Below are positions 14,566 to 40,039 of a stretch of DNA of 64,000 bases, in pieces. Position numbers and translations under genes: made by a program. Origin of the DNA: Gammaproteobacteria bacterium (lineage in GTDB: Bacteria; Pseudomonadota; Gammaproteobacteria; CAJXQU01). Numbering within the stretch: the stretch's first letter is position 1; the number at the start of each line of letters is the position of its first letter. The notes beneath the pieces are model-generated. The model did not search any database and was not told the DNA's origin. It saw only the letters and a program-made list of their open reading frames with translations. The stretch is from positions 2,432,001 to 2,496,000 of the forward strand of contig CBDEGZ010000003.1 in NCBI GenBank assembly GCA_965238175.1. The letters are read 5' to 3'.

Positions 14566-14583
14566 AAAAGGATAATTTAAAAG

Positions 14584-17996: not shown

Positions 17997-18052
17997 AACC
18001 TCTTGCTCGCTACAAGCTGTATTCACATTATTAAAGACACATACGTGCCAGA

Positions 18053-18388: not shown

Positions 18389-18742
18389 TTTTCTTTAACC
18401 TCGTGTGACAATTACATTTTTAAAACTGCGTGTGAAATGAGACGTATGGATTGAAATATACCTGTGCCTTTTGCACATCCCGTGGGAACCTGTTTTGGCC
18501 AGGATAATACTTGAGCAAATTTTTATGTTCTGTATGTTGTATTCTCTTCGACATTAAAAATTCTTATTGATTTTCCTTTGGCTAATTTTCAGATTATTCC
18601 TGTACCATTTGGTACTACATGACTCACAACAGAATCTACTAGATCATTTACTAACCCAGTATCGGACTTACACCACACACTCTGTTAGACACTTCGATTA
18701 GCTCCTCAAGTTCAGGCCTTGAATAATGTGATGTTATCGACA

Positions 18743-19798: not shown

Positions 19799-19983
19799 TT
19801 GCAGATTGAAAATAATTTTAGAAAGAAGAAAATGATCAATCTCTCTAGTCGTTGACTCGCAAGCGATATTTAACCGGCACAGAAACCCTTTCCCTTTATC
19901 TTTTTTGGTTAAATTATTATGTACAGTGGCTCAAGCCTTAATTCTTCCTTTCTTACACGAAACTTAGACTCTGTAATAAAAAA

Positions 19984-20032
19984 GTCCCTGGTTCACTGAA
20001 TTATGGAGGTTCATTTTTTGTGACCCAGGGAC
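19984..20032. terminator. Stem-loop downstream of the porin gene, possible terminator
   Basis: GTCCCTGGTTCAC...GTGACCCAGGGAC inverted repeat; an A-run on the left becomes a T-tail on the minus strand. Confidence 0.4.
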
Positions 20033-20134
20033 AAAACAATGGATTTGTTACTATCTCCCAACCTTAAGGTTGGAGGGTAATTAATAGCATCATCCCACAA
20101 GCGTTTTACTACATATAGAAATCCCTTTCTTAAT

Positions 20135-21403: not shown

Positions 21404-21673
21404 TTATTTCCCCCATAATTTCACTTAATCTAAACAGCTGCTATTTTTCTATCCAGTGCATCTTTAAGAATGTTCTATCTCTGAGACGCACCTCACCCCT
21501 GACACCTACATATCGCCATTTTTTCGAAGCCATTCTTCGAGAGTTAATTTTTTGAATTTCATCTACTGATTAATAGACGCTTATTCAATTTACTCTGGGT
21601 AAAATAACCTAGTAGCTTCGCCTCCTGGATTTTCAAAAATCCTTGTCTTACCGTATTTATACAAAAAATAAAG

Positions 21674-22081
21674 CTATCCGTACTTCTCCATTAAACCAGC
21701 GATGCGTTTTAAAAATATGGCATGCTCGCAGGCCTCTTCTGACGAATAAGAACCATCGAGTATTTCGACAGGTTCTCCTCGTACGCCGGAGGAAATACCT
21801 ATTCTGTAATCCTCAAACATGCGTACACAAACGCTCACGTATTTACCGGCCATTGGATGTCGGCGTAATTTATCAAGTAACGTTCTCAGATCCTGGCTAT
21901 GTTCTATTGCTGGCTGACCATTCTTAGGTGGTGTACCCACAGGGTTAGCTTTGTGTTCAGCAATCAGGCGACGACGTGATTCATCCTCAAACAACAGCGG
22001 CATTACATAGCGACGCGTCATGTGATCGTCAGCCCCTTCATAACCTTCGTTTGCTTGCACACCTTTTTGTTTATCTAACAT
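21674..22081 (-). CDS. N,N-dimethylformamidase small (alpha) subunit homolog
   Basis: LIAEHKANPVG...GKY...EEACEHAIFLKRI matches the DmfA1 pattern EEHAANPFG...EEEAMHAVFLRRI. Confidence 0.8.
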   Translation of the reverse strand: MLDKQKGVQANEGYEGADDHMTRRYVMPLLFEDESRRRLIAEHKANPVGTPPKNGQPAIEHSQDLRTLLDKLRRHPMAGKYVSVCVRMFEDYRIGISSGVRGEPVEILDGSYSSEEACEHAIFLKRIAGLMEKYG

Positions 22082-22129
22082 CTTGTATTCCTCTTAATTT
22101 CAAGTAATAAGTGCTATGACCTTTATTCA

Positions 22130-22498
22130 TCAATGGTTTCGACAAGGTGTAAATTCACCGCGCTCATCTTTAATGCGCTGCGCTTCCTCTTGCGCCAGTT
22201 CTGGTGAGTCGTAAACTTTGTCCTCAAACAATATGATAGGTTTTGCACGATCTGCATTGAGTTGTCCCACACACCACTGTTTATCCGGTTTAATACAAAC
22301 GACGACATAAGCACCTGAGATCGCTCCATACTTATTGTTGTTCAGCTTGAACAGGCATTCAGCTACATCGATAACCTTTTCCTCATCAAGCGACTCCATC
22401 ACCAATTTTTCTAAATCGTTAGGCGGAATCGAACTTGCACCAAGTTCAGATTTGCCCGGTGGTGGATCCAACATGTCGGGGTGTTGATTTATTGTCAT
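22130..22498 (-). CDS. Small protein resembling the C-terminal half of the DMFase small subunit
   Basis: GAYVVVCIKPDKQWCVGQL..DR.KPI.L..DKVYDSPELAQ aligns by eye with GKYVSVCVRMFEDYRIG....RGEPVEI.DGSYSSEEAC of the neighbouring gene. Has a GAGG RBS. Confidence 0.6.
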   Translation of the reverse strand: MTINQHPDMLDPPPGKSELGASSIPPNDLEKLVMESLDEEKVIDVAECLFKLNNNKYGAISGAYVVVCIKPDKQWCVGQLNADRAKPIILFEDKVYDSPELAQEEAQRIKDERGEFTPCRNH

Positions 22499-22524
22499 AT
22501 CACTATCCTCATGTGGTTTTACGT

Positions 22525-24888
22525 TTAAGGTAAATCACCTTCTTTCAAGAAGCCTTTGATCGCATTTTCAGTCAGCCTGGAGACGTTGTTGTTGTAGTTG
22601 TTGTGCGAAAGGCTGCCGCACCATGACAATGATCCTGGTGCGAAGGTTGCTCCACCATTTGGTGTTTTGTAATAGACCATGTCTGCACGCACCATTGGAT
22701 TTTCCGTACCGCTGCCGTGATAACCGCGGACAGAGAAATGAATTTCTTCGTTAACCTGCAGCATTAGATTGGTGTGCCCTTCTGAATGCGCTAATAGATA
22801 TGCGTCGTGCGGTGTACCGAATTCCAGGTCGTAGCGATCAAGTTCCAGACCGGCGGCACCGCCACCAACTAAGCCGAAGTCACCAATTTTTTCGCCATTA
22901 CCAATACCTTCCATAATCCAGGCAGTTTCTGGCAACTCACTGTCCTTATCACGCACATAATAAGAAGACACATCGAAACCATAAGCTGTGAAAGTCAGGC
23001 CACAAAGCTTACTTGGAATACGTCCTCGTGCACGCCACATGCCACCGTACTTACCATCAAAGGCGTTATTGTATTCACCAGGATTAGCTGTCCAGGCACG
23101 GGTACCTGCTTCGCCTTTACGTACTTCAATAATGTTGGAATTATCTGGATGATATTGACTGATCCAATAGAAACCATTCGCACCCAGATAGATCCAGCGT
23201 CCACCTTCCTGCTGATATCTCTCATAAGCTGAGAACATGTTTTCTGAGGTATATTCAGGGTGACTACCCGTCAATACCGTTCGATATTTATTCAGTAAAG
23301 CAACGCCTTCACGATCCAAATCTTCATCAGTATGAACGTCATAATCGAAGCCTTTTTCATCCAGCCAGTCAATTAAGTGCAGGTCACCATTAAGTTGCCA
23401 AAGCGATGGAGACAACCAGTGACGATACTTGGGACGCATGTTCAGAATTGGACGCAAACGTGATGAATAGCTCACACCACTCCCATCGGAATGTAATGAA
23501 TAGGTAGATAAACCATATTCCCTATGCTCATTCAGATACAAATCTGAAGCAGTCATAACCGGAACCTTACCAGCGAGCAATTCAGCAACAACACAGTTAG
23601 TCGCCAGGTTATCGTTGGAATACGCCATATAGGAATTAGTCGGTAAGATAAACGCTAGTTTTGAGGTAGTTGTACCGCGTGGGGGACGTATAACAAAGGG
23701 AATATAATCTTCTGTTTCTGGCGAATCCACACCACCGATCCTCAGGCGTGCAGCATATACACCACTTTTCAGATTGTCAGGAACTGTCAGTTCAAAGTCC
23801 ACATCCCAGCGAGCATCATCGATATCGTCATCGTGGAAATGAATAGCACCGTATTCTTCTGGTTTATGATGATAAACAATCTCGTCACCAGTCCAATTAA
23901 AACCGGTCATACCTCGACATGGCATATTTACAATGTAACCGTGGAGTCGAGAAGTCGACAGATCAAGAATATGTGTACTTGCAATATTCTTAGTGATGTT
24001 GGCATGAAAATCCCAAGCTCCGATCACATCATTGCGCACATCAGGATGACAATATTGAAAACCGCGTGCCAACGCTTCGATTTCTGCTTTAGAGAGGGCA
24101 CGACGAGATAATCTAGGTCGATCGATCTTACCGTTATAAGTAGCACCGCGAGTTTGTTCTGGCAACTCAATCGCTTCAGGAGCTTCCTTAAAGTGTGCTC
24201 CAGAAATACTACGTCCTGATCGCTCAGTCCAGGTACTAGCAGCCATCAGAAATGGGGCATCATTTATTCCTGGCTTCATACTGTTAATCGATTCAACAGT
24301 TGCTGTAGTTTCTTCAGCAGGGTTCAGAATACCTTGTCCCAGACCACCATTGGTTGGAGTCACAACAGGCTCTTGATAAAGAGTGACTTTGCCTGTTCGT
24401 GCATCGTAGCTAACTGCCGCAAGATACCAGACCTTTCGTAATAATTTCTTATCACTGGAAATTTTCATTACCTGCCCAGAACCATTACCAATTCTTGCTT
24501 CCAGGCAACCATTTTTATCGATAAATAATCCGTAACCACTTTCCGAATGATCAACCCATTTGGTTAGAAGCCCCTGACGTCCTTTCTCAGGTGTGGTTGG
24601 AAAGATATAGCACTGCAATGTAAAACTTTCTACATTCAGGCGTTCATCCTGTGGAACGATAATATAAGAACCACCATGAATTTTTTGATTACGTCCTGGA
24701 TAACTTTTATTGCAGGATGCACTAATTTCCTCTTCTTTATATCCAGGACCTTCCGGGTTGGTATCACCATGGATCAAACGTACGAGTTGGGTATCGTAGA
24801 CCTCGTCTTCCTCGGAATTAATATAGAACTTAATATTATCCCCGGGACATATAGAATATTTATCGCTATAACCAGTAATTCTTAACAT
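22525..24888 (-). CDS. N,N-dimethylformamidase large (beta) subunit homolog
   Basis: 787 aa with N-terminal TGYSD...RLIHGD.NPEGPG, a LamG-like insert, and active-site-like motifs SYMAYSN, GLSTY..H.DGSG, GSHPEY and AAGLELD. Confidence 0.92.
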   Translation of the reverse strand: MLRITGYSDKYSICPGDNIKFYINSEEDEVYDTQLVRLIHGDTNPEGPGYKEEEISASCNKSYPGRNQKIHGGSYIIVPQDERLNVESFTLQCYIFPTTPEKGRQGLLTKWVDHSESGYGLFIDKNGCLEARIGNGSGQVMKISSDKKLLRKVWYLAAVSYDARTGKVTLYQEPVVTPTNGGLGQGILNPAEETTATVESINSMKPGINDAPFLMAASTWTERSGRSISGAHFKEAPEAIELPEQTRGATYNGKIDRPRLSRRALSKAEIEALARGFQYCHPDVRNDVIGAWDFHANITKNIASTHILDLSTSRLHGYIVNMPCRGMTGFNWTGDEIVYHHKPEEYGAIHFHDDDIDDARWDVDFELTVPDNLKSGVYAARLRIGGVDSPETEDYIPFVIRPPRGTTTSKLAFILPTNSYMAYSNDNLATNCVVAELLAGKVPVMTASDLYLNEHREYGLSTYSLHSDGSGVSYSSRLRPILNMRPKYRHWLSPSLWQLNGDLHLIDWLDEKGFDYDVHTDEDLDREGVALLNKYRTVLTGSHPEYTSENMFSAYERYQQEGGRWIYLGANGFYWISQYHPDNSNIIEVRKGEAGTRAWTANPGEYNNAFDGKYGGMWRARGRIPSKLCGLTFTAYGFDVSSYYVRDKDSELPETAWIMEGIGNGEKIGDFGLVGGGAAGLELDRYDLEFGTPHDAYLLAHSEGHTNLMLQVNEEIHFSVRGYHGSGTENPMVRADMVYYKTPNGGATFAPGSLSWCGSLSHNNYNNNVSRLTENAIKGFLKEGDLP

Positions 24889-24936
24889 GATATTTCCTCA
24901 AACTTTTATTAAATAGAAATGACAGCTTCTCAATTT

Positions 24937-26880
24937 TTAATTGTAAGCAACTCTTTCAATTTCCTTTTCCGGCGTGGTCGACATCCGCATTTTATTAGCT
25001 AGAAACCAGATCATAAGTACACCGAGTGCCCACCAAATAATCTGCCATGCCCAGAGAGATGGCATTCGGAAAACCCAAGCGTCATAACCTGCATTTGGTT
25101 CTCCGAATAAAACATTGCCTAATAGTGATCCCGGACCAATAGCAAAAAACATCCACACCATCACCATCACACCTGCCACAGGTTTCGACCAACGATCACA
25201 AACCTCTGAAGCTGTGTATTCATGGAAAAAATCGTGAAAGGAATCTCGCCACTTACGATCATCGATATCCTCGCGTGAAGAAGCAGAAACAATCAGACAG
25301 ATAACAAGGTTGAAAAACATACCCCAGGCAGCGGAATGAATAGTCCATGGCCATACACCCCATGGCAGCGAACCACCTGTGAGTTTCTGACCTAACGGCT
25401 CAGTCAAAACAACTGCAATCAAACCGACGATTAAACCTGCTGTTGCCGCACTCCGGGTGATAAATGAGAACCAGGTTACTGCTAACAGTGAAGGCCACAG
25501 TTGGAATGCACAGGCAATGGCTAAGCCGCCTAACAGCATGGTTGCTTCCATCGAAAAAGAAGCCAGTAGCATTGCCGCAAGGAACACCAAACCTGTGCAC
25601 AGACGTGCAACCAACATCTGTTTCTTATGGTCAGCTTCGGGCTCCAGAAAACGAAGATAAATATCACGAGCCAAGATGCTGCCCGTGGTTGACATAAAGG
25701 CAGAACCGGTAGCTTGTAATGCTGCAATAGCACACACAGCCAGGAAACCAATTAGCCAGGGCAAGCTTCCACCGATCAATTTGATATAGTGCGCAACCAA
25801 TTCATTTTGTTGATGCTCTGATAAGACAGGCAATAAATTAGCAACTGCAAAACCAGCTTCGTTAACATCGGCGTTGGCACCTAACAAATGAGCACTGACA
25901 CCCTGAAAGGTTGCAAAAACAAACATCAGAATGCCAACAACACATGCAGCACCCCAAATCTGATGAATCGCAAAACCCCGTGGTGAACGGCTGGCAAAAC
26001 CTAACATGGAAAATGAAGGTGACGCCTGAATACCCATAACTGACATCATGAAGGTCAGGATCATAATAGAGGTCCAGGGACCTCCCGTTGGTGTTTCAAC
26101 ACCTAATCCGCTTGTCCATTGAATAACCCCTGGCACTGCAAAATAACCGGGGAAATTACCACCACCTAGACCTTTAGTTTCAGCCGAATGACTGGCTAGG
26201 TTTTGCGCGATATTAGCCAAACCAGCATTCAATGAGTCGAAGCCGCCTACAAGATCTAAAGCGTACGTTCCCAACACCACCATGCCCAGTATAAAGAGAG
26301 CACATTGCACAACCGCAACTTTAGCAACAGCTTGCATACCGCCTATAACACAGTAGAGCAACACAAAACCTGAGAGACCCCACATAGCAACTGTGCGAGA
26401 CACTTCTCCATTAGTTAGCTCGCTGATCAGGAAGCCGGAAGCACCAAAGAGAATGGCAACAAAAGGAATACCAAATAGCAGGGCAATGAAGACAGAGATA
26501 AGACGTAATGTATTACCCTTAAAATAATCTGCCAACATCTCACCAGATGTCACATAGCCGAAGCGTTGACCTAACATCCACTGCCGTTTAAGTAAGACAA
26601 CACCACTCAAAGCAACAGCCACTGCGTAAAAAGACGCGTTGGCGAACTGAAAACCATCTCGAAAAACTAGTCCAGGATGTCCTATAAAAGTCCATCCTGC
26701 AAAAGAAACCCCAGTAGCGGCAAGCGCAAAAACCCATGGCGACAAACTTCTTCCAGCGAGAAAATAATCGCTAGCAGTGTCCACACGTCGGCACGCACGC
26801 ACGCCCCAGAAGAAGCAATACGCCCAGTAAAGCATCAAAAAAACTAGCAGCCAGGCGGTATTATCAGTCATGTTATTCAA
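24937..26880 (-). CDS. Sodium:solute symporter (SSS family)
   Basis: Motifs DYFLAGRSL, SFAGWTFIGHPG and GYVT.GEML.DYF, with about 15 hydrophobic helices. Confidence 0.9.
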   Translation of the reverse strand: MNNMTDNTAWLLVFLMLYWAYCFFWGVRACRRVDTASDYFLAGRSLSPWVFALAATGVSFAGWTFIGHPGLVFRDGFQFANASFYAVAVALSGVVLLKRQWMLGQRFGYVTSGEMLADYFKGNTLRLISVFIALLFGIPFVAILFGASGFLISELTNGEVSRTVAMWGLSGFVLLYCVIGGMQAVAKVAVVQCALFILGMVVLGTYALDLVGGFDSLNAGLANIAQNLASHSAETKGLGGGNFPGYFAVPGVIQWTSGLGVETPTGGPWTSIMILTFMMSVMGIQASPSFSMLGFASRSPRGFAIHQIWGAACVVGILMFVFATFQGVSAHLLGANADVNEAGFAVANLLPVLSEHQQNELVAHYIKLIGGSLPWLIGFLAVCAIAALQATGSAFMSTTGSILARDIYLRFLEPEADHKKQMLVARLCTGLVFLAAMLLASFSMEATMLLGGLAIACAFQLWPSLLAVTWFSFITRSAATAGLIVGLIAVVLTEPLGQKLTGGSLPWGVWPWTIHSAAWGMFFNLVICLIVSASSREDIDDRKWRDSFHDFFHEYTASEVCDRWSKPVAGVMVMVWMFFAIGPGSLLGNVLFGEPNAGYDAWVFRMPSLWAWQIIWWALGVLMIWFLANKMRMSTTPEKEIERVAYN

Positions 26881-26904
26881 TACTCCTTAATACATTTGTC
26901 AGGG

Positions 26905-28926
26905 TTACGTATTAGCCCGGTCACTCTCAGAACTACCGCCATTCCCATCTTTGTAATCCCCAAGAATATTTGTAATATTGCCAATTTCGTTTGGCGACAT
27001 ACCAATTTCATTGAGCAGGTTGTCAACGAATGGCATTTGTGCGCGATAACGCAGAGCTGAATTTACAATGTTGTCAGATAGACTACTTTGAGATCCTCCC
27101 AAGTCACTATTCACAGGACCTAAGCCTCCACCATCACCGTTTACACTTGCGCTGCTACCATTGAAACCAGGCATACCATTAACTTCATAAATCTTGATAC
27201 CGTCGATGTTTTCCATCGGTCTAACCGCTTCGCGGATAATCGAATCAAGATTCTTAGCCAACTGCATACGCAGATCACTTTGACGACTTTTATCGCTTCG
27301 AGCATTTTCAGCCTCATTCAGCATCAACCTGCCGGCAGCATCCACTTCGTAACGCAGCTTGCTCGCCAAAGAACTATGCTTCTCTGCCTGTTCACGTTCC
27401 TGAGATGCTTCTTTCTCGGCTTTGGCAAGAGTTGTAATTTGAATTGCTTCGCTTTCACCTTCTTGTGTGGCATGGATCAGTTTCAGTTTCTTATGTCGCT
27501 CAGCAACCTCGACTTCCCTTGCTGATGAAACCTGCTCCTCGGCAACGACTGTTTGTGCACGCATCTGCTCTTTAACTTCGTTTGCTTTAAGCACCTGCAC
27601 AGATTTTTCTGTTACGGCCAACTCACGATCATGTTCCTCAATCTCAAGTTGTTTACGTTTTTCAATTTCACGTGTTTTGGTTTTTTCTTCGTTTTCAATA
27701 CGCGTGGTTTCAATAGCACGCTGCTGCTCGATTTTTGATTTCTTAACGCTTTCTTCCGCTTTCAATTGAGCCTGCTCAGCTTCACGGTAACGTTCAGACT
27801 CCTCCTTAACCACATCAGATTTTTGCTGAGCGCGACGCTTAGCAACTTCTTCTTCCTGTGCTAATCGAGCAAACTCATTATCCTTCTCAATTTCCAGCGA
27901 TCTGATTTCACTTTCGAGATTTTTCTGTTTAATTTCAATCTCAGTTTGCCTTTCAATTTCGTTGCGCAGTTTTTTTCGTTCTTCTATCTGCAACGTCAAC
28001 TTGTGTTCACGTAACGAGCGCTCAACTTCAATCGTGTCCTGTTGAGATATACGTGCTTTTTCAACTTCCTCAACGGCATTGATTTTGGCTTCTTCTGCAA
28101 CACGTTCCTGTTCCGCACGCTCAATTGCTATTTCTGTTTGCTCTTTGGCACGTTGCATGGCAATTGCACGTTCTTGCATAAGACGTGCAAACTCTCTTTC
28201 CTTATCAATTTCCAGCGTGCGCTGTTCAGTTTCGAGATTTTTAGATCGAATTTTAATCGCTGTATCCTGCTCGATATCATTACGTTTTTTCTTACGGGAT
28301 TCGATTTGCTCAGTCAGTTGAGTTAGACCTTCAGCATCGAATACATTGGAAGGATTGAAGACTTCCAGACCGGCCTGATCTAATCCAGTCAGGGAAACAG
28401 CTTCTAACTCAAGCCCCGTTTCGCTGAGTGAATCTTTAACCAATGCCTTAACAGCCTTGATATATTCGCCACGCTTTTCCTGTATTTCTTCCATGGTCAT
28501 TTGTGCAGCGACAACACCTAACGCATCAATGAAACGACCCTGAACTAACTCACGCAAGCTCTCTGGCTCCAATGTCCGCTTACCCAGAGAACCCGCTGCT
28601 ACAGATACAGCTTCTTTTGTGGGAGTGACGCGAACATAAAATTCGGCCACAATTTCCACCCGCATACGGTTCTTTGTGATAAAGGACTTATCTCCACCAC
28701 GTCGTACCTCAATACGCAAAGTCCTCATACCAACTGTTGTGATGTTATGAATGATGGGTAATACAAATGCACCGCCACTCAGAACAATTTTTTCACCTCC
28801 AAGACCGGTTCTGACAAACGAAACTTCTTTGGACGAACGGCGATAAAGCCAATGTAATAGATAAACCGCGATAGCAATGGTAAGTGCTACCAGAATGATT
28901 ACTGCAATAATGTCTGCACCAGTCAT
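26905..28926 (-). CDS. Flotillin/SPFH (YqiK-like) protein
   Basis: N-terminal TM helix, SPFH motifs FVRTGLGG and GLELEAVSLT.LDQ...F..NVFDAEGL, a long E/A/K coiled coil and a C-terminal PMENIDGIKI. Confidence 0.93.
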   Translation of the reverse strand: MTGADIIAVIILVALTIAIAVYLLHWLYRRSSKEVSFVRTGLGGEKIVLSGGAFVLPIIHNITTVGMRTLRIEVRRGGDKSFITKNRMRVEIVAEFYVRVTPTKEAVSVAAGSLGKRTLEPESLRELVQGRFIDALGVVAAQMTMEEIQEKRGEYIKAVKALVKDSLSETGLELEAVSLTGLDQAGLEVFNPSNVFDAEGLTQLTEQIESRKKKRNDIEQDTAIKIRSKNLETEQRTLEIDKEREFARLMQERAIAMQRAKEQTEIAIERAEQERVAEEAKINAVEEVEKARISQQDTIEVERSLREHKLTLQIEERKKLRNEIERQTEIEIKQKNLESEIRSLEIEKDNEFARLAQEEEVAKRRAQQKSDVVKEESERYREAEQAQLKAEESVKKSKIEQQRAIETTRIENEEKTKTREIEKRKQLEIEEHDRELAVTEKSVQVLKANEVKEQMRAQTVVAEEQVSSAREVEVAERHKKLKLIHATQEGESEAIQITTLAKAEKEASQEREQAEKHSSLASKLRYEVDAAGRLMLNEAENARSDKSRQSDLRMQLAKNLDSIIREAVRPMENIDGIKIYEVNGMPGFNGSSASVNGDGGGLGPVNSDLGGSQSSLSDNIVNSALRYRAQMPFVDNLLNEIGMSPNEIGNITNILGDYKDGNGGSSESDRANT

Positions 28927-28965
28927 AATTTCTTACTCCTCAATAATATAGTTCTGATTATTCTG

Positions 28966-29679
28966 TTACTCAGCAACAGGATGATTTATGGCATTTGTGT
29001 CACTAATAGCAGCCTTATAAATTACGAAACCAAAGATGATCTTGTTTAAAAAATCAGCTAGGTTATAAATAATGTTGAGACTGTTAGTATCAACCCCTCC
29101 ACCCAGGTTATTGATAAAGTATCCGAGTGGATAAATTGCCCAACCGATAGTGACGATCAACCGTAATCCGTTAAATGCCATATGCGTTGCCTCGTTACCG
29201 CTTTCAGTATTAACGCGTCCAGCCTCACCCATATAGAGCTCACCGAGAATGTACAGCCAACCGACCACACCGATAATGAAACCCAAAGTTGCACTCATAT
29301 AACCTGCCGCACCCAGGAACTCACCAATAACCATAACCAATGATCCAATTAGCAAACGCCAAAATAAGGCTGGCGACACCTCTGTCACAGCCGCTAGCAC
29401 CACGTAAAACAGCACCACCTGCATTGAATGCGACAGTACCCAATCCACATAGCGCAAAATAATCGGCGCAGTACCCGTATCCACCCACATGCTTTTTGTG
29501 TAGTGATAAAAAATAGCGGAAACCAGCATCACAACACCGAGCAATGTCATCGTCGTGTGCCATCGGCTGTCCACCCTGTTTCTTTCCAGCAGGAAAAAAA
29601 TGGTGGCTCCGATCATGGCCATTGACAATAGCCAGAATGATCCACCTACTACGTCTGTTGGTAATAACATCTTGTTCAT
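28966..29679 (-). CDS. Proteorhodopsin-like microbial rhodopsin (flotillin-associated type)
   Basis: Seven TM helices with PR hallmarks SFWL, FFLLER, RYVDW, GWAIYPLGY and NIIYNLADFLNKIIFG (retinal-binding Lys). Confidence 0.95.
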   Translation of the reverse strand: MNKMLLPTDVVGGSFWLLSMAMIGATIFFLLERNRVDSRWHTTMTLLGVVMLVSAIFYHYTKSMWVDTGTAPIILRYVDWVLSHSMQVVLFYVVLAAVTEVSPALFWRLLIGSLVMVIGEFLGAAGYMSATLGFIIGVVGWLYILGELYMGEAGRVNTESGNEATHMAFNGLRLIVTIGWAIYPLGYFINNLGGGVDTNSLNIIYNLADFLNKIIFGFVIYKAAISDTNAINHPVAE

Positions 29680-29750
29680 GAAAGCCCTCTACTATCTATT
29701 TTATTTATTAAAACAATGACATACATGCTGTCGTCATGCCTTTCACATCT

Positions 29751-31175
29751 TTATATCTGCGTCCGTATGTGCGGTGAACGTGCATACAAGGCCACCATCG
29801 GCAGAATCAGCAAACCAAACACGAATTGCTGCCCTTCAAAACTCAAACCGATACCCACAAGAAACGACGACAGTACTTGTAGAACAAGCACACCAATGAC
29901 CGTGAATCCATAGCCGCCAATACCACCAAGCAAGGAAGTCCCCCCTACAACAACCGCAGCCAGCGTCATGAACAAATACTGATCGCCCACACCGATAAAA
30001 GCACCGCCACTCCAACCCAGCAGCAAAGCGCCAGTCAAAGCTGAAATCAAACCGCTGATGCAATACACACCCACCCAGTAGGAGTGCTCTGAAATTGACA
30101 AGCGTGCAGCTGCTATTCGACCGCCACCCAAGGCGTAGAGATTTCTTCCCCAGCTTGAATTACGTAATCCAAAAATCAGAATGATGGCCGCCAGGATCCA
30201 GACAACAACAACCGGCGGAATACTAATACCGGCGATGCTGCCATTGACAGAGGCAATATTAGTTAACCAATTAGGAACAACACCGAACACGGTGCCACCG
30301 GAGCCAAGAGTAGTGATAGTTTGAACACCACCAGAGACAGCAAAACCAACCCCCAGTGTCAGGATGAGGGCCTGCCCCTGTAGTTTGAAACTCAATAGAC
30401 CGTTGACAAGCCCAATGGCGGCACCAACCAGCAGCACCGCAAGGATGGCAAGCCAGGGTGGGATGCCCATGTTGAGCAGGAACATCAAACCAACGTTCGA
30501 ACCACCGATAACAAAGGGAATGGATAGATCCAAGCCGCCCAGCAAAGCAACCAGTGTTTGCCCGATACAAGCCAGCCCCAAAAACGAAGCAAACAGCAGC
30601 ATTGATTTGAGATTCAACGTAGAAAGAAATCCCTCTACAACCAAGATACCAATAATAAAAAGCCCAATAAGAACGGTGAGACCCAAGTAAGCACTTTTAT
30701 TATTTTTAACGTTTTTATTAATAACAATGCCAATAACAATCAGCAGGACAAATACAAGTGCCGCGAGGATATTAGACGGTTGAAAGAAGTCCTCGACAGC
30801 AGCACCAACGGCAAAGAAAAGGGCGATCCCGAGCAAAATACCAATCAAGGCACCCTTGTATCTGGAGATAAGTAAACTAAAATAACTTTGTTCGTGCTCA
30901 TCCTCATCACCAGGTTTTACTTCTGCTGCTGCAACTGGCTCAACTGCTTCAGCCTCTGTTGTGCTGATGGCTATTGCATCATCACGATATATCCAGCGCA
31001 CTGAAAAGTGGTGCCAACCCCATAAAATGAGACCGAAGATTGCAACCGTGTAGAAAACAATGTGTTGTGTAGGCATATCATCAAGCGATCCCAGTACAGC
31101 ACTGACCCCAGCGACTAGCATTGCGATAACTAAACCCAGTCCCTTGTAAAACGAAAAGGCGCCTCTGGTGCTCAT
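29751..31175 (-). CDS. ABC permease (RbsC/BPD_transp_2 family) with an N-terminal membrane extension
   Basis: Motifs GQTLV.L.GGLDLS, GRNLYALGG...AARLS and AAVVVGGTSL.GG.G; 474 aa. Confidence 0.88.
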   Translation of the reverse strand: MSTRGAFSFYKGLGLVIAMLVAGVSAVLGSLDDMPTQHIVFYTVAIFGLILWGWHHFSVRWIYRDDAIAISTTEAEAVEPVAAAEVKPGDEDEHEQSYFSLLISRYKGALIGILLGIALFFAVGAAVEDFFQPSNILAALVFVLLIVIGIVINKNVKNNKSAYLGLTVLIGLFIIGILVVEGFLSTLNLKSMLLFASFLGLACIGQTLVALLGGLDLSIPFVIGGSNVGLMFLLNMGIPPWLAILAVLLVGAAIGLVNGLLSFKLQGQALILTLGVGFAVSGGVQTITTLGSGGTVFGVVPNWLTNIASVNGSIAGISIPPVVVVWILAAIILIFGLRNSSWGRNLYALGGGRIAAARLSISEHSYWVGVYCISGLISALTGALLLGWSGGAFIGVGDQYLFMTLAAVVVGGTSLLGGIGGYGFTVIGVLVLQVLSSFLVGIGLSFEGQQFVFGLLILPMVALYARSPHIRTQI

Positions 31176-31211
31176 TTTATTTGCTCTTATCCTCCTCTAT
31201 ACGCATAATGA

Positions 31212-33410
31212 TTACCTTTCCCACGGACTAATTGCATCATCGCGTTTTTCGCCGACGATGTAGGTGTTGATTATGTGCATAACGTTTGGTGCTGTAATAA
31301 TCGACATACCGATAACCGCCAGGATTTTCCACAGCGGAACACCGATTGCGTAAAACAGACCGCTCCAGGCTAACGTGGCTAAAGCAGCGATATGCCAGTA
31401 ACGCCAAAAACTACGGAAACTGGATTCGCCCATCGCCATACGAAGGAAGATATGCAACATAAGAATAATGAAACCGCAGTAAGCCAACTCTGAAAATATC
31501 GCCATATCTGAGACGCCCACACCAACTCTGGCAGGGTCGGAATACTCGATGGCTGGTAGTTCCATAGGTGTCACACCCGTGCGAATAACAGGTTCGGCAT
31601 AACCCGCCCCTTGAGCGATCACGTCAGCAGGTATACCGCTACCGCTGGCGAAGAAATACACAACAATGACGGCTAGCACCGCTAAGGCACCAATGAACAG
31701 GTTATTAATATTGTGCAGTTTGGTTTGTACCAGCGGCGCCGTGATGGCGAACAACAGCGCGCCGACCAGAATAATGGCATATATTTCACCGGACAGTTGA
31801 CCAGCCAAATAGCCCTTGTCCGCATCTGAGAAGAACATGGCGCCAACAGCAATGACTGCAACCGCACCACCAAATAGAATCATTGCAACGCGTTTTGTGC
31901 GAATTGCCACCTGTGGCAGCATCACCAGAACGATCAAGGAAGTCAGTAGTACAGTACCCAACACCCCCATCAGCACATAGGTAGATTGAGCCACCGATTC
32001 GGTCATATTAAATGTGCCGCCGGCGTAAGTGATCGTTTCCAAGGCAAAGAAACCATACGTCTGCTCAACAACACTCGATGCCGACACTTGCGAAGCTACT
32101 GCCGTTATCGCTTCAGTTGGGGCACCTGAATTAGCCATCAGGCCTATGGCAACAACGATCAAGACGATAATAAAACCGATCATTGGCCCTGTCGTATGCT
32201 TCATCAACGCGCGCACTGCGCAAGCGATAGCCGCCCCGCCAAGAATGACGAATAGGAAATAAGTGCCTACTGGATAGGATGTATACGCTGTTTCTACAGG
32301 CGCAACATATTTCCACTCAGCTGCTGCCGCCAATGCCGCTGGATCTATCAAATTATCCATTGCGGCATGCATACTCACGCCCATCGCAATGACCGCCAGT
32401 ATCACGAAAAACATGATGGGCGACAGATTGCGAGCGATTTTTTGCAGTTGAGGAATCGCCACACTGATTAATAGAGAAATAACCAGCACCGCACCATAAG
32501 CCATGTCAGTAACATAACTTTGTACCTGGCCGAAGTTAAACGTGGACAGCGCATAGGTGATCAAATAGATATTTAACGCACCTAACAGACCACCAAAAGC
32601 ACTACCCCGGCCACCGGCCAGGTTGGCACCGCCAAGCACCAGAGCGGTCACAGCCATCAAAGTGTAGGTTGTGCCTTGCGAGGGATCGCCAGAACTGATC
32701 AGCGAGGTAAAGGTCAAGGCAGCAAGCCCGGCGTATATACCACCGACAATATGTGCACCTAACCGCACCATGTTGATATTTACTCCACTGGTGTAGGTCG
32801 CCCGTTCATCTGAGCCCATCATTATGAGGTTGCCGAAAAAGGCGGTTTTAGCAAGAACGTACCAGCCGAGGGTCGCGGCGATTAAGATCACCAGAACCGG
32901 TGAAAAAATGGTAGTTCCTGCACCCCAGTCCAACATCCATTCTGGTGCCAACCCGCCAGGTCGCGGCATAATCATCAGGTTCAGACCCACCAGAGCAAGA
33001 TAGCCACTCAATGAAACGATGATCGGCTGCACACGGACGAAAATAATAATCAAGCCGAGCAATATTTGATAGACAACACCGACAGCCATGGCAAAAAGGA
33101 ATACTGCTATTGGCGACTCAATGAAACCAATGCCGACTAACTGGATCAAACTGACATTAACAAAACCGATGAGTGGACCAATAGACAGGTCAACACCAGC
33201 TCGCCCTGCCATCGTAATCATGGTTAATGCGTAAGTCGCCAAAACCAGTGGCGCGACCACGATCACAGCACTACCGATCCCTGCACTAGAGATCAAATTA
33301 GGTCCTCTGATAACGGCAAAGATCAGCAATACAAAGAAGATAAAAATCGGAACCATAAGGTATGTACTCGCCCCGGAACCTGACTCTTTGCGCTTTTTTA
33401 CAGTATTCAC
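31212..33410 (-). CDS. ABC permease (RbsC family) with a ~410-aa C-terminal multi-TM extension
   Basis: Motifs GVDLSIG, GSDERATYTSGVN and ALVLGGANLAGGRG lie within the first ~320 aa; 732 aa in total. Confidence 0.88.
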   Translation of the reverse strand: MNTVKKRKESGSGASTYLMVPIFIFFVLLIFAVIRGPNLISSAGIGSAVIVVAPLVLATYALTMITMAGRAGVDLSIGPLIGFVNVSLIQLVGIGFIESPIAVFLFAMAVGVVYQILLGLIIIFVRVQPIIVSLSGYLALVGLNLMIMPRPGGLAPEWMLDWGAGTTIFSPVLVILIAATLGWYVLAKTAFFGNLIMMGSDERATYTSGVNINMVRLGAHIVGGIYAGLAALTFTSLISSGDPSQGTTYTLMAVTALVLGGANLAGGRGSAFGGLLGALNIYLITYALSTFNFGQVQSYVTDMAYGAVLVISLLISVAIPQLQKIARNLSPIMFFVILAVIAMGVSMHAAMDNLIDPAALAAAAEWKYVAPVETAYTSYPVGTYFLFVILGGAAIACAVRALMKHTTGPMIGFIIVLIVVAIGLMANSGAPTEAITAVASQVSASSVVEQTYGFFALETITYAGGTFNMTESVAQSTYVLMGVLGTVLLTSLIVLVMLPQVAIRTKRVAMILFGGAVAVIAVGAMFFSDADKGYLAGQLSGEIYAIILVGALLFAITAPLVQTKLHNINNLFIGALAVLAVIVVYFFASGSGIPADVIAQGAGYAEPVIRTGVTPMELPAIEYSDPARVGVGVSDMAIFSELAYCGFIILMLHIFLRMAMGESSFRSFWRYWHIAALATLAWSGLFYAIGVPLWKILAVIGMSIITAPNVMHIINTYIVGEKRDDAISPWER

Positions 33411-33574
33411 TTTTGTTGACTCTTAATCACGGTTCGTATTAACCCTATGTATGTTTACTGAAGTCCACAGGGTGAAAAAATTGCAGACTTCTTCATATTT
33501 AATATCTTGACTCTTGCAACACATTCAATCCTGCTTAACTCACTTGGACGCTGACACTAACAGGCACATCAGTG

Positions 33575-35893
33575 CTATTTCTCTCCAAGCATCAACTGGT
33601 TAAATTTTTGCAGATCCTTTTCGCTATACTCGAATGGACTAGAAACTGCTTGCCGGGACTTCTCCTTGTGGTTCTCAAATTTCGCCTTACTTTCTTTTTT
33701 GCCTACAGAGATGAACTCATTACTATGGGGCTCCTCAACCTCCGGCTGCATAAGCTCCTGGAATCTACGCTCGTCTGCATCGCTGTAATTTGCACCGTTA
33801 TCTCTACACCCAGAAAAACGTGTTACCTTTCTGCCCTTTTTCTCAAAAACCATCAGCTCCTCAAAATTACGTGCGTCATCCTCCGAGTATTGGGTTCCTG
33901 TCGACGACACTATTTCTTCATGTCGCTTATCATCATCACGAAGCCCCAAAATATCTTCTTCAACACCCGAAGATATCATCAACTTTTCGAACTGGTCTTC
34001 ATCACTTGAGCTATAACCATCTTTGCCCAGACTTGAAGTCAGAGGCTCTTCTTTGAAATATTTGCTTACGTTGAGTTTGCTCACATTGAACTCCGAGTTT
34101 GTCTCTTTGTTTGTTTCTGATTCGACTTTTTCCGAGGGTTTAATTTCAGACTTAATTGACTGCTGACTAATGGTGTTTTGCTTCAACAGCAGCTGCTTTT
34201 CTCTGTCGCTTTTCGGTTTGCTGACAGTCTTTCGGGGGCTTGTTTGTTTACTATTGCCAACGGCTGCTCTCATTTTTCGTTCCAGGTAGGCCTGATGAGA
34301 ACCATCTTTGCCCTGATAGCGACCAAACATCGACTCGAGAATGCCGACCGGCTCAATCTTTTCATCTACAAATTCTTCAAAAATACTGCCATTACGAAAC
34401 ACCAGAACGCGCGAACAAAATCCAATAAATTCTTCCAGTTCGCTTGACATATAAATTGCCGAACTGCCTTCCCCGGCGAATTCACGCAATTGCTTGTAAA
34501 GATCCCTTTTGGTATGCAAGTCAATACCACGAGCAGGATCCAGCAAAACCAAGGTTTTTGGATGGGTCGCGAAAGCACGTCCCAGCATTACTTTTTGCTG
34601 GTTACCACCACTCAATGAGGTGATCAGGTTTTCTTTCGGTCCGGTTTTAATGGCAAGACGCTCGACCTCCCAATCAAAAACATCTCTTAAACTAAACCAG
34701 TCAATCAAACGTGCACCAGGCAACTTCGAATGACTGTGATATAAGGGGAGTAATAAATTCTCAAAAATACTTAAATTCGGGAGAATGCCTTCTTTTTTAC
34801 GATCACCCGATACAAATGCGATATTATGAGTTTTAGCATCGTCCAGACTTCTAATGGTGAAATAATCTTCTGAATTTTGCTTTCTCACCAGAGTATGACC
34901 ATCACTAGCTTCTTTAACTCCAGCAATAATGCGGCAAAAATCGTCCTGACCGTGACCATCCAAGCCAGTAACACCGATAATTTCACCCTTTAACAGATCG
35001 AAATTCATCGGTTCAGCATCGGCCCAAACCTTCATATTCCTGGTTTTTACGGCAGACTCGGTGTTCGTTGTTTGATGAGCATCACCAATTTTCGGCTTTT
35101 CCGACTCAGACTTGCCAGTCATTAAACGCAACAGGTTTTCTTCGGTGATTTCCTCTTTTTGCAAAACACCAACATCTATGCCATCGCGCATCACCGTGCA
35201 ACGATCACTGACACGAATCAACTCCGCGATGCGGTGAGTAACGATAATAATCGCAGTACCAGCATCCCGCATTTGCCGCATTTTTTCGAACAGCCGTTCC
35301 GTTGAATCAAAATCCAACGCAGCGGATGATTCATCGAGAATCAGAAGATCCGGATCACATAAAAAACCACGGCAAATGGTTATCCATGCTTTGATACTTA
35401 ATGGCAAAGTACCTGCTAGCTGCAGCGGATCAATCGGCTCGCCGCACATCTCACTCATCAACTCACGCGCCTTGTCCTCTTTCTCCGTGTCCGACATAGA
35501 TTTTGAGAAGAAACCATCAGAGCCAATAAACAGGTTATCAACCACCGAAGCCTCGTCAGCGACCAGTACTTCCTGGAATACCATAGCAACCCCGACTGAA
35601 CGGGACTCGCCTGGCGTACTAGGATGATGCCCTTTAATAGATACCTTCCCTGAATCAATTGGTAAAACACCAGCCAGCACTTTGGCCATAGTACTTTTAC
35701 CACAGCCGTTACCCCCGGTAATCGCGTGAATCTCACCGAAATTACCGTTAAAGGTAGCACCGTTCAAGGCTTTGGTTACCCCAAATGCCTTATGGACATT
35801 CCTAACATAAAGGTCACCCGGATAGGTGGTTAACACTTCCCCTGCAACTCCTGAGGAATTATTCTCAGGTGTTTTGTCGGCTGCGATTTCCAC
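33575..35893 (-). CDS. Sugar-type ABC ATPase (RbsA-like, two NBDs) with a ~245-aa charged C-terminal tail
   Basis: Motifs GGNGCGKST, LILDES, VTHR and LSGGNQQK. The tail contains four YSxxDxxxFxxLM repeats. Confidence 0.9.
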   Translation of the reverse strand: MEIAADKTPENNSSGVAGEVLTTYPGDLYVRNVHKAFGVTKALNGATFNGNFGEIHAITGGNGCGKSTMAKVLAGVLPIDSGKVSIKGHHPSTPGESRSVGVAMVFQEVLVADEASVVDNLFIGSDGFFSKSMSDTEKEDKARELMSEMCGEPIDPLQLAGTLPLSIKAWITICRGFLCDPDLLILDESSAALDFDSTERLFEKMRQMRDAGTAIIIVTHRIAELIRVSDRCTVMRDGIDVGVLQKEEITEENLLRLMTGKSESEKPKIGDAHQTTNTESAVKTRNMKVWADAEPMNFDLLKGEIIGVTGLDGHGQDDFCRIIAGVKEASDGHTLVRKQNSEDYFTIRSLDDAKTHNIAFVSGDRKKEGILPNLSIFENLLLPLYHSHSKLPGARLIDWFSLRDVFDWEVERLAIKTGPKENLITSLSGGNQQKVMLGRAFATHPKTLVLLDPARGIDLHTKRDLYKQLREFAGEGSSAIYMSSELEEFIGFCSRVLVFRNGSIFEEFVDEKIEPVGILESMFGRYQGKDGSHQAYLERKMRAAVGNSKQTSPRKTVSKPKSDREKQLLLKQNTISQQSIKSEIKPSEKVESETNKETNSEFNVSKLNVSKYFKEEPLTSSLGKDGYSSSDEDQFEKLMISSGVEEDILGLRDDDKRHEEIVSSTGTQYSEDDARNFEELMVFEKKGRKVTRFSGCRDNGANYSDADERRFQELMQPEVEEPHSNEFISVGKKESKAKFENHKEKSRQAVSSPFEYSEKDLQKFNQLMLGEK

Positions 35894-35931
35894 TTATCCG
35901 GGCCCTTCCACAATCAATTAATTACTAAAGA

Positions 35932-37119
35932 TTAATGAGTTGCTGGATCGTATTTTGTTGGATCTGCTGGGCGCAGGAAGAAATTATCCAGATAACCGGG
36001 TCCACCCCAGCGATCAACACCTACATTCAGCCATTCGGTAGAATTGCGATCACAGTCCTCACCTAGCAAGGCTTCAACCTCCTCATATTCAATCAATACT
36101 GATGGCACTAATACGGACTGAATCTTAGGCCCTTGTCCCTGCATGGTACGCATCATGATGTTAAAGCCCAGTTCGATATCATCACCTGGAGGCCAGGTTT
36201 GAATCGCACCGCTGATATAATCAGGGTTGTTGCGCCAGTAGCACAATGCACCCATTTCACCACCAATGGACATTGGCGGAATATCATCACGACCTGACTG
36301 CAAGATTGCCTGCAGTACGCCAGTTTCACCTGAAGATTGCACAGCAATGCCATCCAGTTCGCCGGGGTGCGTTGCTAGCCACTTCTGCGTTTCCGCCTGA
36401 CCAACCTGAGAGGTCCACATGTGAGCGATATTACCTGTGACCTCAATATCTTCAGATTGTGACAAACCGTCCAGAACACCACGGTTTTGAGAGTCGGATG
36501 CAGATGCACCAGGAATACCTTCAATTACCAGGACATTACCTTCCTCATCAATTTCTTCTGCCATCCAACGGCCTATTTCATAGCCAGCCTGATGGTAGTT
36601 AACCGATGAGTTAACTACATAAGGTGAGGTGACATAACCTGTGAAGGAAAACACCGGTACACCTTTGTCATAAGCATATTTAATAGATTGATTTAGAGCA
36701 GTTGGATTTGAGCAACAGATAATGATTGCATCAACACCCTGATCAACTAGCTGTCGAATCTGTTGAATCTGCAGAGAATCTTTTAGATTGGATTGCGTAA
36801 CAATTATATCTTTGAGTAAGCCAAGCTCTTGCCACTTTGGCTTTAACTCTCCAAGCAGACGCTCCATTGCGCCTTTTCGCCAGGTATTACCAGCATAGGT
36901 ACTGGCATAACCAATAGTCCAAGGTGGCTTACGCTCACTTTTCCACTCTCTAAAGACGCTAATATCAAGCGGTTGTGCTGGATCTGTATATTTTGGGTCA
37001 TATGCTTTTTCTCGAATATCATCAGGAATCTCATCAAGACCTTCTGCTACAGATGTAGCCGACAACCCTAACGAACACGCAACTAATGTGATTAGCTGAA
37101 TTATTTTTCTCATAATCAA
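35932..37119 (-). CDS. ABC substrate-binding protein (RbsB/Peripla_BP_4 family)
   Basis: Signal peptide, then IGYASTYAGNTWR, QIQQIRQLVDQGVDAII and IEGIPGAS. Confidence 0.9.
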   Translation of the reverse strand: MIMRKIIQLITLVACSLGLSATSVAEGLDEIPDDIREKAYDPKYTDPAQPLDISVFREWKSERKPPWTIGYASTYAGNTWRKGAMERLLGELKPKWQELGLLKDIIVTQSNLKDSLQIQQIRQLVDQGVDAIIICCSNPTALNQSIKYAYDKGVPVFSFTGYVTSPYVVNSSVNYHQAGYEIGRWMAEEIDEEGNVLVIEGIPGASASDSQNRGVLDGLSQSEDIEVTGNIAHMWTSQVGQAETQKWLATHPGELDGIAVQSSGETGVLQAILQSGRDDIPPMSIGGEMGALCYWRNNPDYISGAIQTWPPGDDIELGFNIMMRTMQGQGPKIQSVLVPSVLIEYEEVEALLGEDCDRNSTEWLNVGVDRWGGPGYLDNFFLRPADPTKYDPATH

Positions 37120-37942
37120 ATCCTCCTCTTTGGATGATTATTTGGTGGTATAGCTGAACGTTTTTATAGTTATTTTGAGATAGTCTACAAAATCACACAG
37201 ACATGCCCATAAGTTATAATTTAAAGCTATAATATACTAACTTTAGTTAGTGTTATTAATTTAATCATGGACTATATTCTTTTGTCAATGCGACACTCTA
37301 TCTAAAGATATATTTATTTAGACCTAATATGCAGTGGTTCTAGATAATTACTGAAAGAATTAATAAGTGTTGAAAGTAACCTTAAGCGTTATATCTAAAG
37401 AATTCTCGATTCCAGAAAAATATATATAACTAGTTATTATTCAATAATTTAATAAATTAATGCTTTTAAGTTTTTTCACTCAAATCTTACAAGATTATTT
37501 GAATTTTAAGGTGAAAATATATTTTCCATAGACTATGCATATATAGACCAATGTTATATCCATACCTGTTAAATAGGTAATCCGAAACAATTTGGATAGC
37601 AGATAACAGAATAGATGTGCACTGAAGTAAGCGAGGACCGTTATTTGAGCTACGCCATTAGCTAAGCGTTCGAAACATGGAGATTCACACTTAGAACCAT
37701 GGGTTAGCGAGAGGAATATACTTCGAAACAAATAAGTGAAAATCAGCGTACTAGAATGTAGCGTCGTCCAGAAAATACACTCATTCTAGACAGGAAAATC
37801 AAAATGGTATGATGTAGTTGGGTACAAATAGATAGTGACAATCTGCTGGTGTCGTATTGCTAGTAAACAGCCGATGAAGTTTAACGCTTAATTAGGATAT
37901 TAAAGTGCAGAGTGTCCATAGGTTTATATAAATGAGAGTATC

Positions 37943-40006: not shown

Positions 40007-40039
40007 GAGAAAAGAATTACGCCGATCAGGCTTCTAAAT

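Follow-up and report, generated by a model that had tools for sequence, protein, structure and literature searches.

The window studied here is a stretch of 64,000 nucleotides (nt) from the genome of a Gammaproteobacteria bacterium (assembly GCA_965238175.1, contig CBDEGZ010000003.1, positions 2,432,001 to 2,496,000 of the forward strand), and positions given below are counted from its first nucleotide unless a contig is named. Its minus strand carries an open reading frame (ORF) of the proteorhodopsin family which is directly followed by a flotillin gene, and both are placed in a run of transporter and amidase-like genes within a region rich in guanine and cytosine (GC) (table 1). The ORF is a flotillin-associated rhodopsin (FArhodopsin, hereafter FAR) of the Pseudothioglobus type, that is, a member of a family already described by Haro-Moreno et al. 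(2023; PMC10308929), whose defining layout is a proteorhodopsin-family gene and then a flotillin gene. The family identity is given by the flotillin gene adjoining the rhodopsin gene, a neighbor that was overlooked by the first-pass annotation of this DNA, in which the ORF had been read from the sequence as a proteorhodopsin paralog with unusual residues.

The Rhodopsin ORF

The ORF is intact from ATG to stop and encodes 237 amino acids (aa), with a GAGGG five bases upstream of its start codon. Its translation includes the helix C segment RYVDWVLSHSMQVVLF, AIFYHY in helix B and DFLNK in helix G. The match to the Pfam family Bac_rhodopsin (PF01036) is far above chance (E 1.1e-31), and the top match among solved structures is PDB 9R21, entitled "flotillin-associated rhodopsin" (E 1.7e-130), which aligns to residues 1-230 without a gap. 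The AlphaFold model, built on an alignment of 45 rows, has a mean predicted local distance difference test (pLDDT) of 87.6 and shows seven transmembrane helices, with helix A predicted from residue 7. The best structural matches of the model are 9R23 and 9R21 (template modeling score, TM-score, 0.93-0.94), ahead of all pumps.

In detail, the HMMER residue alignment to the Med12 blue proteorhodopsin (4JQ6) places FAR residues opposite the D, T, V, Q, and E of the pump. In the numbering of the protein itself, the resulting triad DSL corresponds to D79/S83/L90. The position of the proton donor (E108 in green-proteorhodopsin numbering) is taken by Leu90 and helix C has no carboxylic donor, while the position of the helix-B histidine is taken by Phe57. 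This alignment agrees with the residue reading of the first-pass annotation, according to which the acceptor aspartate is kept, threonine has become serine, valine-proline has become histidine-serine, glutamine stands at the tuning site and glutamate has become leucine, with the histidine of helix B exchanged for phenylalanine and the aspartate and lysine of helix G retained. The lack of a signal peptide, stated there as well, is consistent with the start of helix A in the model and with the alignment of residue 8 to residue 27 of the full-length 4KLY, FAR being shorter by about 19 N-terminal residues.

The deposited gene call for this ORF (28966-29490) gives a product of 174 aa from Met64, in which helices A and B are absent. 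This call is probably truncated, since residues 1-63 of the longer product align without gaps to the solved homolog and the GAGGG lies upstream of the longer frame.

Family Membership and the DSL Triad

The FAR of the window shows 84% identity to the one on the contig encoding PsFAR (locus L003), which is the FAR of a Pseudothioglobus single-amplified genome (SAG), and its nearest neighbor in the tree is that of locus L002 (92-93% identity). The tree is a quick maximum-likelihood reconstruction of 51 rows, that is, the window, 49 named loci, and one proteorhodopsin as outgroup, with the 120 database proteins (P0001-P0120) excluded. The window FAR is located in a clade of 13 rows with a Shimodaira-Hasegawa-like approximate likelihood ratio (SH-aLRT) support of 98, together with L003 and records titled Pseudothioglobus or Thioglobus. 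The outgroup and L047 form long branches, and the deep order of the tree is not reliable.

The DSL triad had been considered a possible new variant in the first-pass annotation, set against DTV, DTL, and DNI as the reported FAR motifs. The published set consists of DTT in Pelagibacterales, DTL in Pseudothioglobus and DNI in HIMB59 (PMC10308929), and the triad of PsFAR reads DTM. Residues were counted in 168 relatives, made up of 119 database clusters and the 49 loci (two sets that may overlap), with the short gene call of the window itself excluded. DSL is found in 23 of these and serine at position 83 in 39. Among the 90 relatives which are at least 75% identical, DTL predominates (74 cases), followed by DSL (12), DTM (2), GTL (1), and a gap (1). 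Judged from these sequences, DSL is a conservative change from threonine to serine relative to the Pseudothioglobus DTL, arisen on several branches, and a minor recurrent variant rather than a new type. The residue reading of the first-pass annotation is upheld, the novelty of the motif is not. The triad is absent from the main texts of both papers on FARs, whose supplementary tables may list it or further taxa, and none of the papers searched pairs "DSL motif" with "rhodopsin." The gene itself adds little, given that the family, the range of motifs and the structural cause of retinal loss have all been published already.

The Retinal Pocket

PsFAR (PDB 9R21; double mutant, 9R23) has been characterized by Kovalev et al. 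(bioRxiv 10.1101/2025.04.29.651185, also cited as Structure 2025). As reported there, the wild-type protein is colorless in excess retinal and its cryo-electron microscopy map, that of a regular pentamer, is without cofactor. In its pocket H84 fills the polyene site and E120 fills the ionone site, and according to the authors H84 leaves no space for any retinal isomer. Retinal was bound only by the H84V/E120G double mutant, whose photocycle is slow and close to bistable and which shows no pumping.

The window FAR matches every residue of the pocket or of the lysine network that is named for PsFAR in that report, with S54, D79, H84, M116, E120, G137, Y183, P184, D209, L211, and K213 being identical and the numbering shared. 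F57 and Q87 are common to both proteins as well. The two proteins align at 84% over residues 1-230, their folds agree (TM-score 0.93), and in both cases the flotillin gene is directly downstream. The Schiff-base lysine K213 is kept, but His84 and Glu120 stand at the positions of valine and glycine in PsPR (9R22), the proteorhodopsin of the PsFAR host. Among the 90 close relatives, H84 is found in 84 and E120 in 85, while K213 and Q87 are found in all. Because PsFAR is free of retinal and both H84 and E120 are retained here, it is a strong inference from a characterized homolog of 84% identity that the window FAR binds no retinal. Of the functions guessed in the first-pass annotation, that of a poor retinal binder is hence borne out, whereas that of a slow-cycling sensor is not, since the slow, nearly bistable photocycle was seen with the engineered double mutant of PsFAR and not with the wild type. 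The more general expectation of a proteorhodopsin-family protein which does not pump is supported.

In comparison with the proteorhodopsin pumps (4JQ6; the HOT75 blue proteorhodopsin 4KLY; green proteorhodopsin 7B03; PsPR 9R22), FAR has the same fold, belongs to the same pentamer-type family and shows 40-48% identity (E 6.8e-65 to 1.2e-58). The acceptor aspartate and the aspartate and lysine of helix G are also shared, as is the glutamine at the tuning site with blue proteorhodopsin. On the contrary, the donor glutamate is leucine in FAR, the histidine of helix B is phenylalanine, the proline of helix C is serine, the valine and glycine of the pocket are histidine and glutamate, and there is no leader peptide. 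Rhodopsins without the lysine (Rh-noK and the lysine-less FARs of freshwater), compared by their published descriptions, likewise have a chromophore-free rhodopsin fold. In those the lysine was lost, whereas the window FAR retains it and has lost the pocket instead.

The Flotillin Gene

The flotillin gene starts 39 nt past the stop codon of FAR on the same strand, its product matches the families Flot (1.5e-29) and Band_7 (6.9e-15), and it is the sole gene of the genome with a Flot domain. A flotillin gene is directly downstream of the rhodopsin gene in 48 of the 49 related loci, and this order is kept across Alpha- and Gammaproteobacteria. The sole exception (L047) is a DTE-type rhodopsin of 50% identity and not a FAR. 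The window flotillin shares the SPFH domain, the coiled coil and the Flot C-terminal domain with FloT of Bacillus subtilis, but it scores 29 bits against a cut-off of 700 for the NCBIfam FloT equivalog and is therefore not a FloT ortholog. In the published tree, the flotillins of FAR clusters form a group of their own (PMC10308929).

The N-terminal helix and the beginning of the SPFH domain (residues 3-70) are near-invariant across clusters of the SAR11, HIMB59, and gamma types, in contrast to the far more variable coiled coil. For instance, 24 of the positions 3-34 are invariant in 29 sequences which are otherwise 54-83% identical to the window flotillin. This frozen N-terminus would fit a specific contact between helices within the membrane, but it could equally reflect the self-assembly of flotillin. 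Co-folding of FAR with flotillin residues 1-200, both entered as alignments, resulted in a score of 0.00 (mark 0.32), which speaks neither for nor against binding.

A Host without a Proton Pump

The host genome consists of 3,352,323 bases in 3 contigs, is 97.7% complete and is not streamlined. A profile search of this genome gave FAR as the single PF01036 rhodopsin match, and tblastn with FAR, with a proteorhodopsin 41% identical and with a DTE rhodopsin found nothing else in it below E 0.06. The designation as a paralog in the first-pass annotation does not hold for a genome with no other rhodopsin. The retinal-forming gene blh was not found in the host genome, while in the positive control it was located 5 kb from the pump gene of genome G008. 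An RPE65-type oxygenase was not found in the host genome either, and the respective control was positive in 2 of 14 genomes.

Ten other genomes carrying FARs of 77-92% identity were compared; these were chosen for their large contigs and not at random, and their completeness was not reported. Two rhodopsins occur only in a 1.7-Mb Pseudothioglobus and a 3.0-Mb Njordibacter genome. The other eight (2.6-5.2 Mb), titled Arenicellales, Poriferihabitaceae, Rhizobiaceae, or uncultured Gammaproteobacteria, have FAR alone. Together with the window genome, no other rhodopsin is thus present in 9 of 11 FAR-carrying genomes.

These hosts differ from the published description. In the SAGs studied by Haro-Moreno et al. 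(PMC10308929) a DTE proteorhodopsin was always found elsewhere in the genome, the hosts were streamlined, and all marine FAR contigs were assigned to Pelagibacterales, HIMB59 or Pseudothioglobus, and it was proposed that FAR complements the proton pump in dim light. None of these features holds here. Similarly, the host of PsFAR carries PsPR, whereas the 3.35 Mb of the window host are without a proteorhodopsin. The pump-less hosts contradict the published claim that FAR genomes invariably hold a proteorhodopsin paralog, and weaken the idea of FAR assisting a pump.

Moreover, FAR is under strong purifying selection without any pump. The ratio of nonsynonymous to synonymous substitution rates (dN/dS) is 0.032 against L002 and 0.033 against both L013 and L016, all from genomes with a single rhodopsin; in the other pairs the synonymous sites are saturated.

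Two further observations concern the same genome. Its sole gene of the squalene/phytoene synthase family (SQS_PSY) is on contig C3 (3048292-3049410 of that contig), flanked by OmpA-family genes on one side and by a 1360-aa ORF without family on the other, and none of the seven neighboring ORFs scanned is a carotenoid gene; it may be relevant to the isoprenoid lipids of flotillin microdomains. Contig C1 (10,967 bases) has a GC content of 55.8% as compared with 40.4% of the genome, which could mark a foreign element or contamination from binning.

The Gene Cluster

FAR is placed inside a run of eleven genes on the same strand, with ten of the spacers at 24-164 nt and the last at 270 nt. The order of the run is binding protein, ABC ATPase, 732-aa permease, 474-aa permease, FAR, flotillin, Na+/solute symporter, dimethylformamidase-like protein and three ORFs without family. 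The hybrid kinase and the LuxR regulator diverge from the head of the run (table 1). The hybrid kinase, which contains a HAMP domain, is 8 kb away from FAR in the same cluster, and no transducer-type gene is found beside FAR. L002 and L025 share the gene order of the window (ATPase, permeases, FAR, flotillin, symporter, amidase), and a shorter version of it is found in the Pseudothioglobus records.

Table 1. Genes and Regions of the FAR Locus, with Positions in the 64,000-nt Window
Feature	Position	Strand	Characteristics
GC-rich, putatively acquired island, largest possible extent	9869..45025		DNA similarity to same-genus genomes breaks off at about 9868 and returns at about 45026
PxpA (LamB/YcsF), 80-aa biotinyl-carrier-like ORF, biotin carboxylase, carboxyltransferase subunits CT_C_D and CT_A_B	13554..17805	+	Convergent with the tail of the run
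N,N-dimethylformamidase-like large subunit (787 aa) and ORFs of 122, 135, and 422 aa	20135..24888	-	DMFA2_C 1.4e-95
Sodium:solute symporter family gene	24937..26880	-	647 aa; 24 nt past the flotillin gene
Flotillin gene	26905..28926	-	673 aa; N-terminal transmembrane helix, SPFH/Band_7, long coiled coil, Flot C-terminal domain
FAR gene	28966..29679	-	237 aa; D79/S83/L90; pocket-blocking H84 and E120; K213 kept
Two ABC permease genes (474 aa, 732 aa)	29751..33410	-	BPD_transp_2; directly upstream of FAR; same order in L002 and L025
ABC ATPase (772 aa) and periplasmic binding protein (395 aa)	33575..37119	-	Double ABC_tran; Peripla_BP_4; head of the gene run
Hybrid sensor histidine kinase (687 aa, +) and LuxR-type response regulator (256 aa, -)	37943..40810		Kinase with HAMP domain
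Second ABC importer set: binding protein, ATPase, permease	40903..44856	+	After the kinase/LuxR pair

The cluster corresponds gene for gene to the one published for Pelagibacterales, HIMB59 and Pseudothioglobus (PMC10308929) in the tandem of rhodopsin and flotillin, the Na+ symporter, the inner-membrane translocators, the dimethylformamidase and PxpA, as well as in the LuxR regulator and the hybrid kinase, the last two being listed there for the Pseudothioglobus cluster. It differs in that genes for biotin carboxylase and carboxyltransferase, which are given in that text only for Pelagibacterales and HIMB59, are present in the window, and in the triad, which is DTL in the published Pseudothioglobus cluster and DSL here.

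Several of the neighboring genes show features of their own. The three ORFs at the tail of the run (20135-22498, minus strand) are without any Pfam or NCBIfam match. The 135-aa ORF among them is found in 28 of the 49 FAR loci at 52-73% identity; this conserved gene of unassigned family might code for a small amidase subunit. The 80-aa ORF (14323-14565, plus strand), unlisted, has an EVMK motif like that of biotinyl domains and is situated between the genes for PxpA and biotin carboxylase; the block in which it stands looks like a biotin-dependent variant of a 5-oxoprolinase-type system. In the 732-aa permease (31212-33410) BPD_transp_2 spans residues 49-313 only, and in the 772-aa ATPase (33575-35893) sugar-type ATPase models span approximately residues 28-526 only, leaving several hundred residues of each outside the family match.

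Between the head of the FAR run and the divergent hybrid kinase there is an AT-rich spacer of 823 nt (37120-37942), which is unusually long for the region and probably has a regulatory role. It has no repeat in common with the other upstream regions. A repeat search of 9700-45300 and blastn-short among 11 oriented upstream regions gave only matches of 10-14 nt (E 0.18-0.91), and no promoter or operator module shared between the operons of the cluster was recovered in the window. A scan of 19000-38500 for promoters and terminators, in which counts were not above those of shuffled sequences, showed no terminator-like site in the spacers flanking the FAR gene. Of the public sequencing runs, a single DNA run contains the complete stretch, and none of RNA was listed.

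The Island

FAR and the Flot domain were each found in none of six same-genus genomes (93-99% complete), and positions 24001-44000 have no DNA match in five of these genomes. The flanking genes match same-genus genomes at about 70-86%; as the identity of these flanks is only of this level, the boundaries of the island are upper limits. Genome G016 does not preserve the synteny of this flank on the left side. The GC content of the 13.5-45 kb region is 44.1% as opposed to 40.4% for the genome, which places it in the top 1.7% of 20-kb windows. The proteins of the island are 75-92% identical to those of L002, and the elongation factor G (EF-G) paralog adjoining the island is 78% identical to that of G009, the genome of L002, and 87-96% identical within the genus. 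A FadB-like protein was also considered as a yardstick of relatedness, but it was dropped as confounded by paralogs and EF-G was used instead. The absence from these genomes, the GC content and the identities of the island relative to EF-G together point to the horizontal acquisition of an island of at most 35 kb. Synonymous sites are saturated, and the transfer of the island is therefore not recent. Scans of the window for tRNAs and Rfam families found nothing, and no integration site of the tRNA type is evident.

At the left edge of the island (9136-9868 region), an AMP-binding ORF similar to acyl-CoA synthetases stops after 193 aa, covering positions 1-170 of the 384 of the profile. Just past this ORF, a stretch of 107 nt (9762-9868) is 93% identical to a genome of the same genus with which the coding DNA shares only about 70% identity; the stretch is single-copy in the host genome and matches neither tRNA nor Rfam models. 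The EF-G gene at the right edge (45220-47304, plus strand) is a second EF-G paralog, found at 78-96% in relatives in addition to a canonical copy at 53-55%. In Pseudothioglobus and one Arenicellales genome, only the 55% copy is present.

Proposed Role of the FAR

Family membership, the blocking residues, the gene order, the lack of both a pump and the known genes for retinal synthesis, the purifying selection and the character of the island are direct observations. Taken together they make it likely that the window FAR is a retinal-free, light-independent seven-transmembrane partner or client of flotillin in a transporter/amidase operon, which works without a proteorhodopsin and is located on an acquired island. 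In this proposal, His84 across the polyene site and Glu120 at the ionone site would fill the protein's own pocket, so that FAR would bind no retinal, absorb no visible light and not act as a pump. It would be produced from the same run of genes as the flotillin, the ABC components, the binding protein, the symporter and the amidase. The protein, a pentamer in the case of PsFAR, would then act in the membrane independently of light, as a partner or client of the scaffold formed by flotillin, and the two could organize a microdomain around the transporters of the operon, which may feed a catabolic pathway of the amide/lactam type. The whole module would operate without any proteorhodopsin, having arrived on the horizontally acquired island of up to 35 kb. 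The connection with uptake and breakdown of amides or lactams is suggested by the family names of the neighboring genes.

Several points weigh against this proposal. The window FAR is not identical to PsFAR at three sites, having S83 instead of T83, L90 instead of M90 at the site of the lost donor, and H59 instead of Y59, the residue which in PsFAR narrows the center of the pentamer (10.1101/2025.04.29.651185). K213 is conserved in 167 of the 168 relatives, R76 in all 168, D79 in 163, and D209 in 166. Such strict conservation of the Schiff-base region is unexpected for a chromophore-free protein, and a function involving a ligand or an ion is conceivable at this site. Haro-Moreno et al. (PMC10308929) consider a different chromophore or a distortion of the fold still conceivable, and the report of the PsFAR structure finds in it "no obvious evidence" of an adaptation to flotillin (10.1101/2025.04.29.651185). 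Direct contact between FAR and flotillin is presumed, the putative operon is defined by spacing and strand, and the absence of a pump is deduced from a genome which is 97.7% complete and not closed. A search for heliorhodopsins gave no match, but its control was positive nowhere and the result shows little.

The main rival takes FAR itself as the working part for the substrate of the operon: the conserved Arg-Asp-Asp-Lys core would bind a ligand or an ion, and FAR would be either a seven-helix chemoreceptor for a small molecule, signaling from the former retinal/Schiff-base site to the hybrid kinase, or a conduit through its water-filled inner cavities or the narrow pore at the center of the pentamer. 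Although improbable on the whole, this explanation would account for the conservation of the four residues in the absence of retinal, and the cluster does include a HAMP hybrid kinase and a LuxR regulator. In PsFAR, water-filled cavities surround K213 and a central constriction of 10 A is lined by residue 59 (10.1101/2025.04.29.651185), and sensing in the manner of G protein-coupled receptors was raised as a possibility by the authors of 2023 (PMC10308929). However, no transducer gene adjoins FAR and there is no known ligand. The cavities of PsFAR are described as fragmented (10.1101/2025.04.29.651185), and residue 59 is variable in the 90 close relatives (H in 36, Y in 34, F in 17, V in 3), contrary to what a selective pore would require.

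It is distinctly unlikely that FAR binds retinal or another chromophore of environmental origin in vivo and serves as a slow-cycling photosensor. The protein has kept the lysine, both aspartates and the glutamine of the tuning site, the photocycle of the double mutant is of the slow and almost bistable kind, and E120 is flexible in the PsFAR map (10.1101/2025.04.29.651185); in addition, the lower photic zone is enriched in FAR genes (PMC10308929). All of this is set against a wild-type PsFAR which is retinal-free and from which, according to its authors, H84 excludes every isomer of retinal (10.1101/2025.04.29.651185), and against the retention of both H84 and E120 in the window FAR. Neither blh nor the RPE65-type enzyme was found in the host genome, and related freshwater FARs are entirely without the lysine (PMC10308929).

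The hypothesis of 2023, by which FAR would be an accessory subunit of the proteorhodopsin pump, tuning or boosting its activity in dim light within a heterocomplex, is very improbable here. In its favor, a DTE proteorhodopsin was present elsewhere in the genome in all of the SAGs studied (PMC10308929), and both genes do occur in 2 of the 11 genomes checked, one of Pseudothioglobus and one of Njordibacter. For this organism it is already contradicted by the lack of a second rhodopsin, which is lacking as well in eight of the ten other FAR carriers examined, and FAR is under strong purifying selection regardless. That FAR is the decaying remnant of a pump, a passive passenger of the island without a function of its own, is hardly credible even though the proton donor, the helix-B histidine and the retinal pocket have all been lost, in view of the intact reading frame with GAGGG before its start, a dN/dS of 0.03-0.04 where synonymous sites are unsaturated, 51 invariant columns across 45 sequences, the gene order with flotillin kept across two classes (Alpha- and Gammaproteobacteria), and the regular pentamer formed by PsFAR (10.1101/2025.04.29.651185).

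The interest of the locus is in its pump-less, non-streamlined and acquired context, which contradicts a published generalization and narrows the functional hypotheses. A lysine-bearing FAR of the marine type is here selected without a pump or known retinal-forming enzymes, and this is a clean natural experiment bearing on the leading hypothesis of its function. Given this selection and the carriers with a single rhodopsin, the function is to be sought in the flotillin/transporter operon and not in phototrophy. More speculatively, and with somewhat less than even confidence, the pair of FAR and flotillin may be a self-sufficient membrane-organizing module, independent of light and of pumps, which is spread among distantly related marine bacteria by a transporter/amidase island and in which the fold of an ancestral pump was reused as a scaffold client or ligand-binding subunit for the uptake of amides or lactams. 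If this were true, the view of FAR as a helper of the proton pump in dim light would be wrong in general. The host range of FARs is much wider than the three streamlined taxa reported, with named carriers including Arenicellales, Poriferihabitaceae, Rhizobiaceae, Hyphomicrobiales, Chromatiales, Njordibacter, and Pseudothioglobus. Some carriers are recorded under titles that describe complete chromosomes, namely of Candidatus Njordibacter sp. and Candidatus Pseudothioglobus sp., and this may open the family to genetics.

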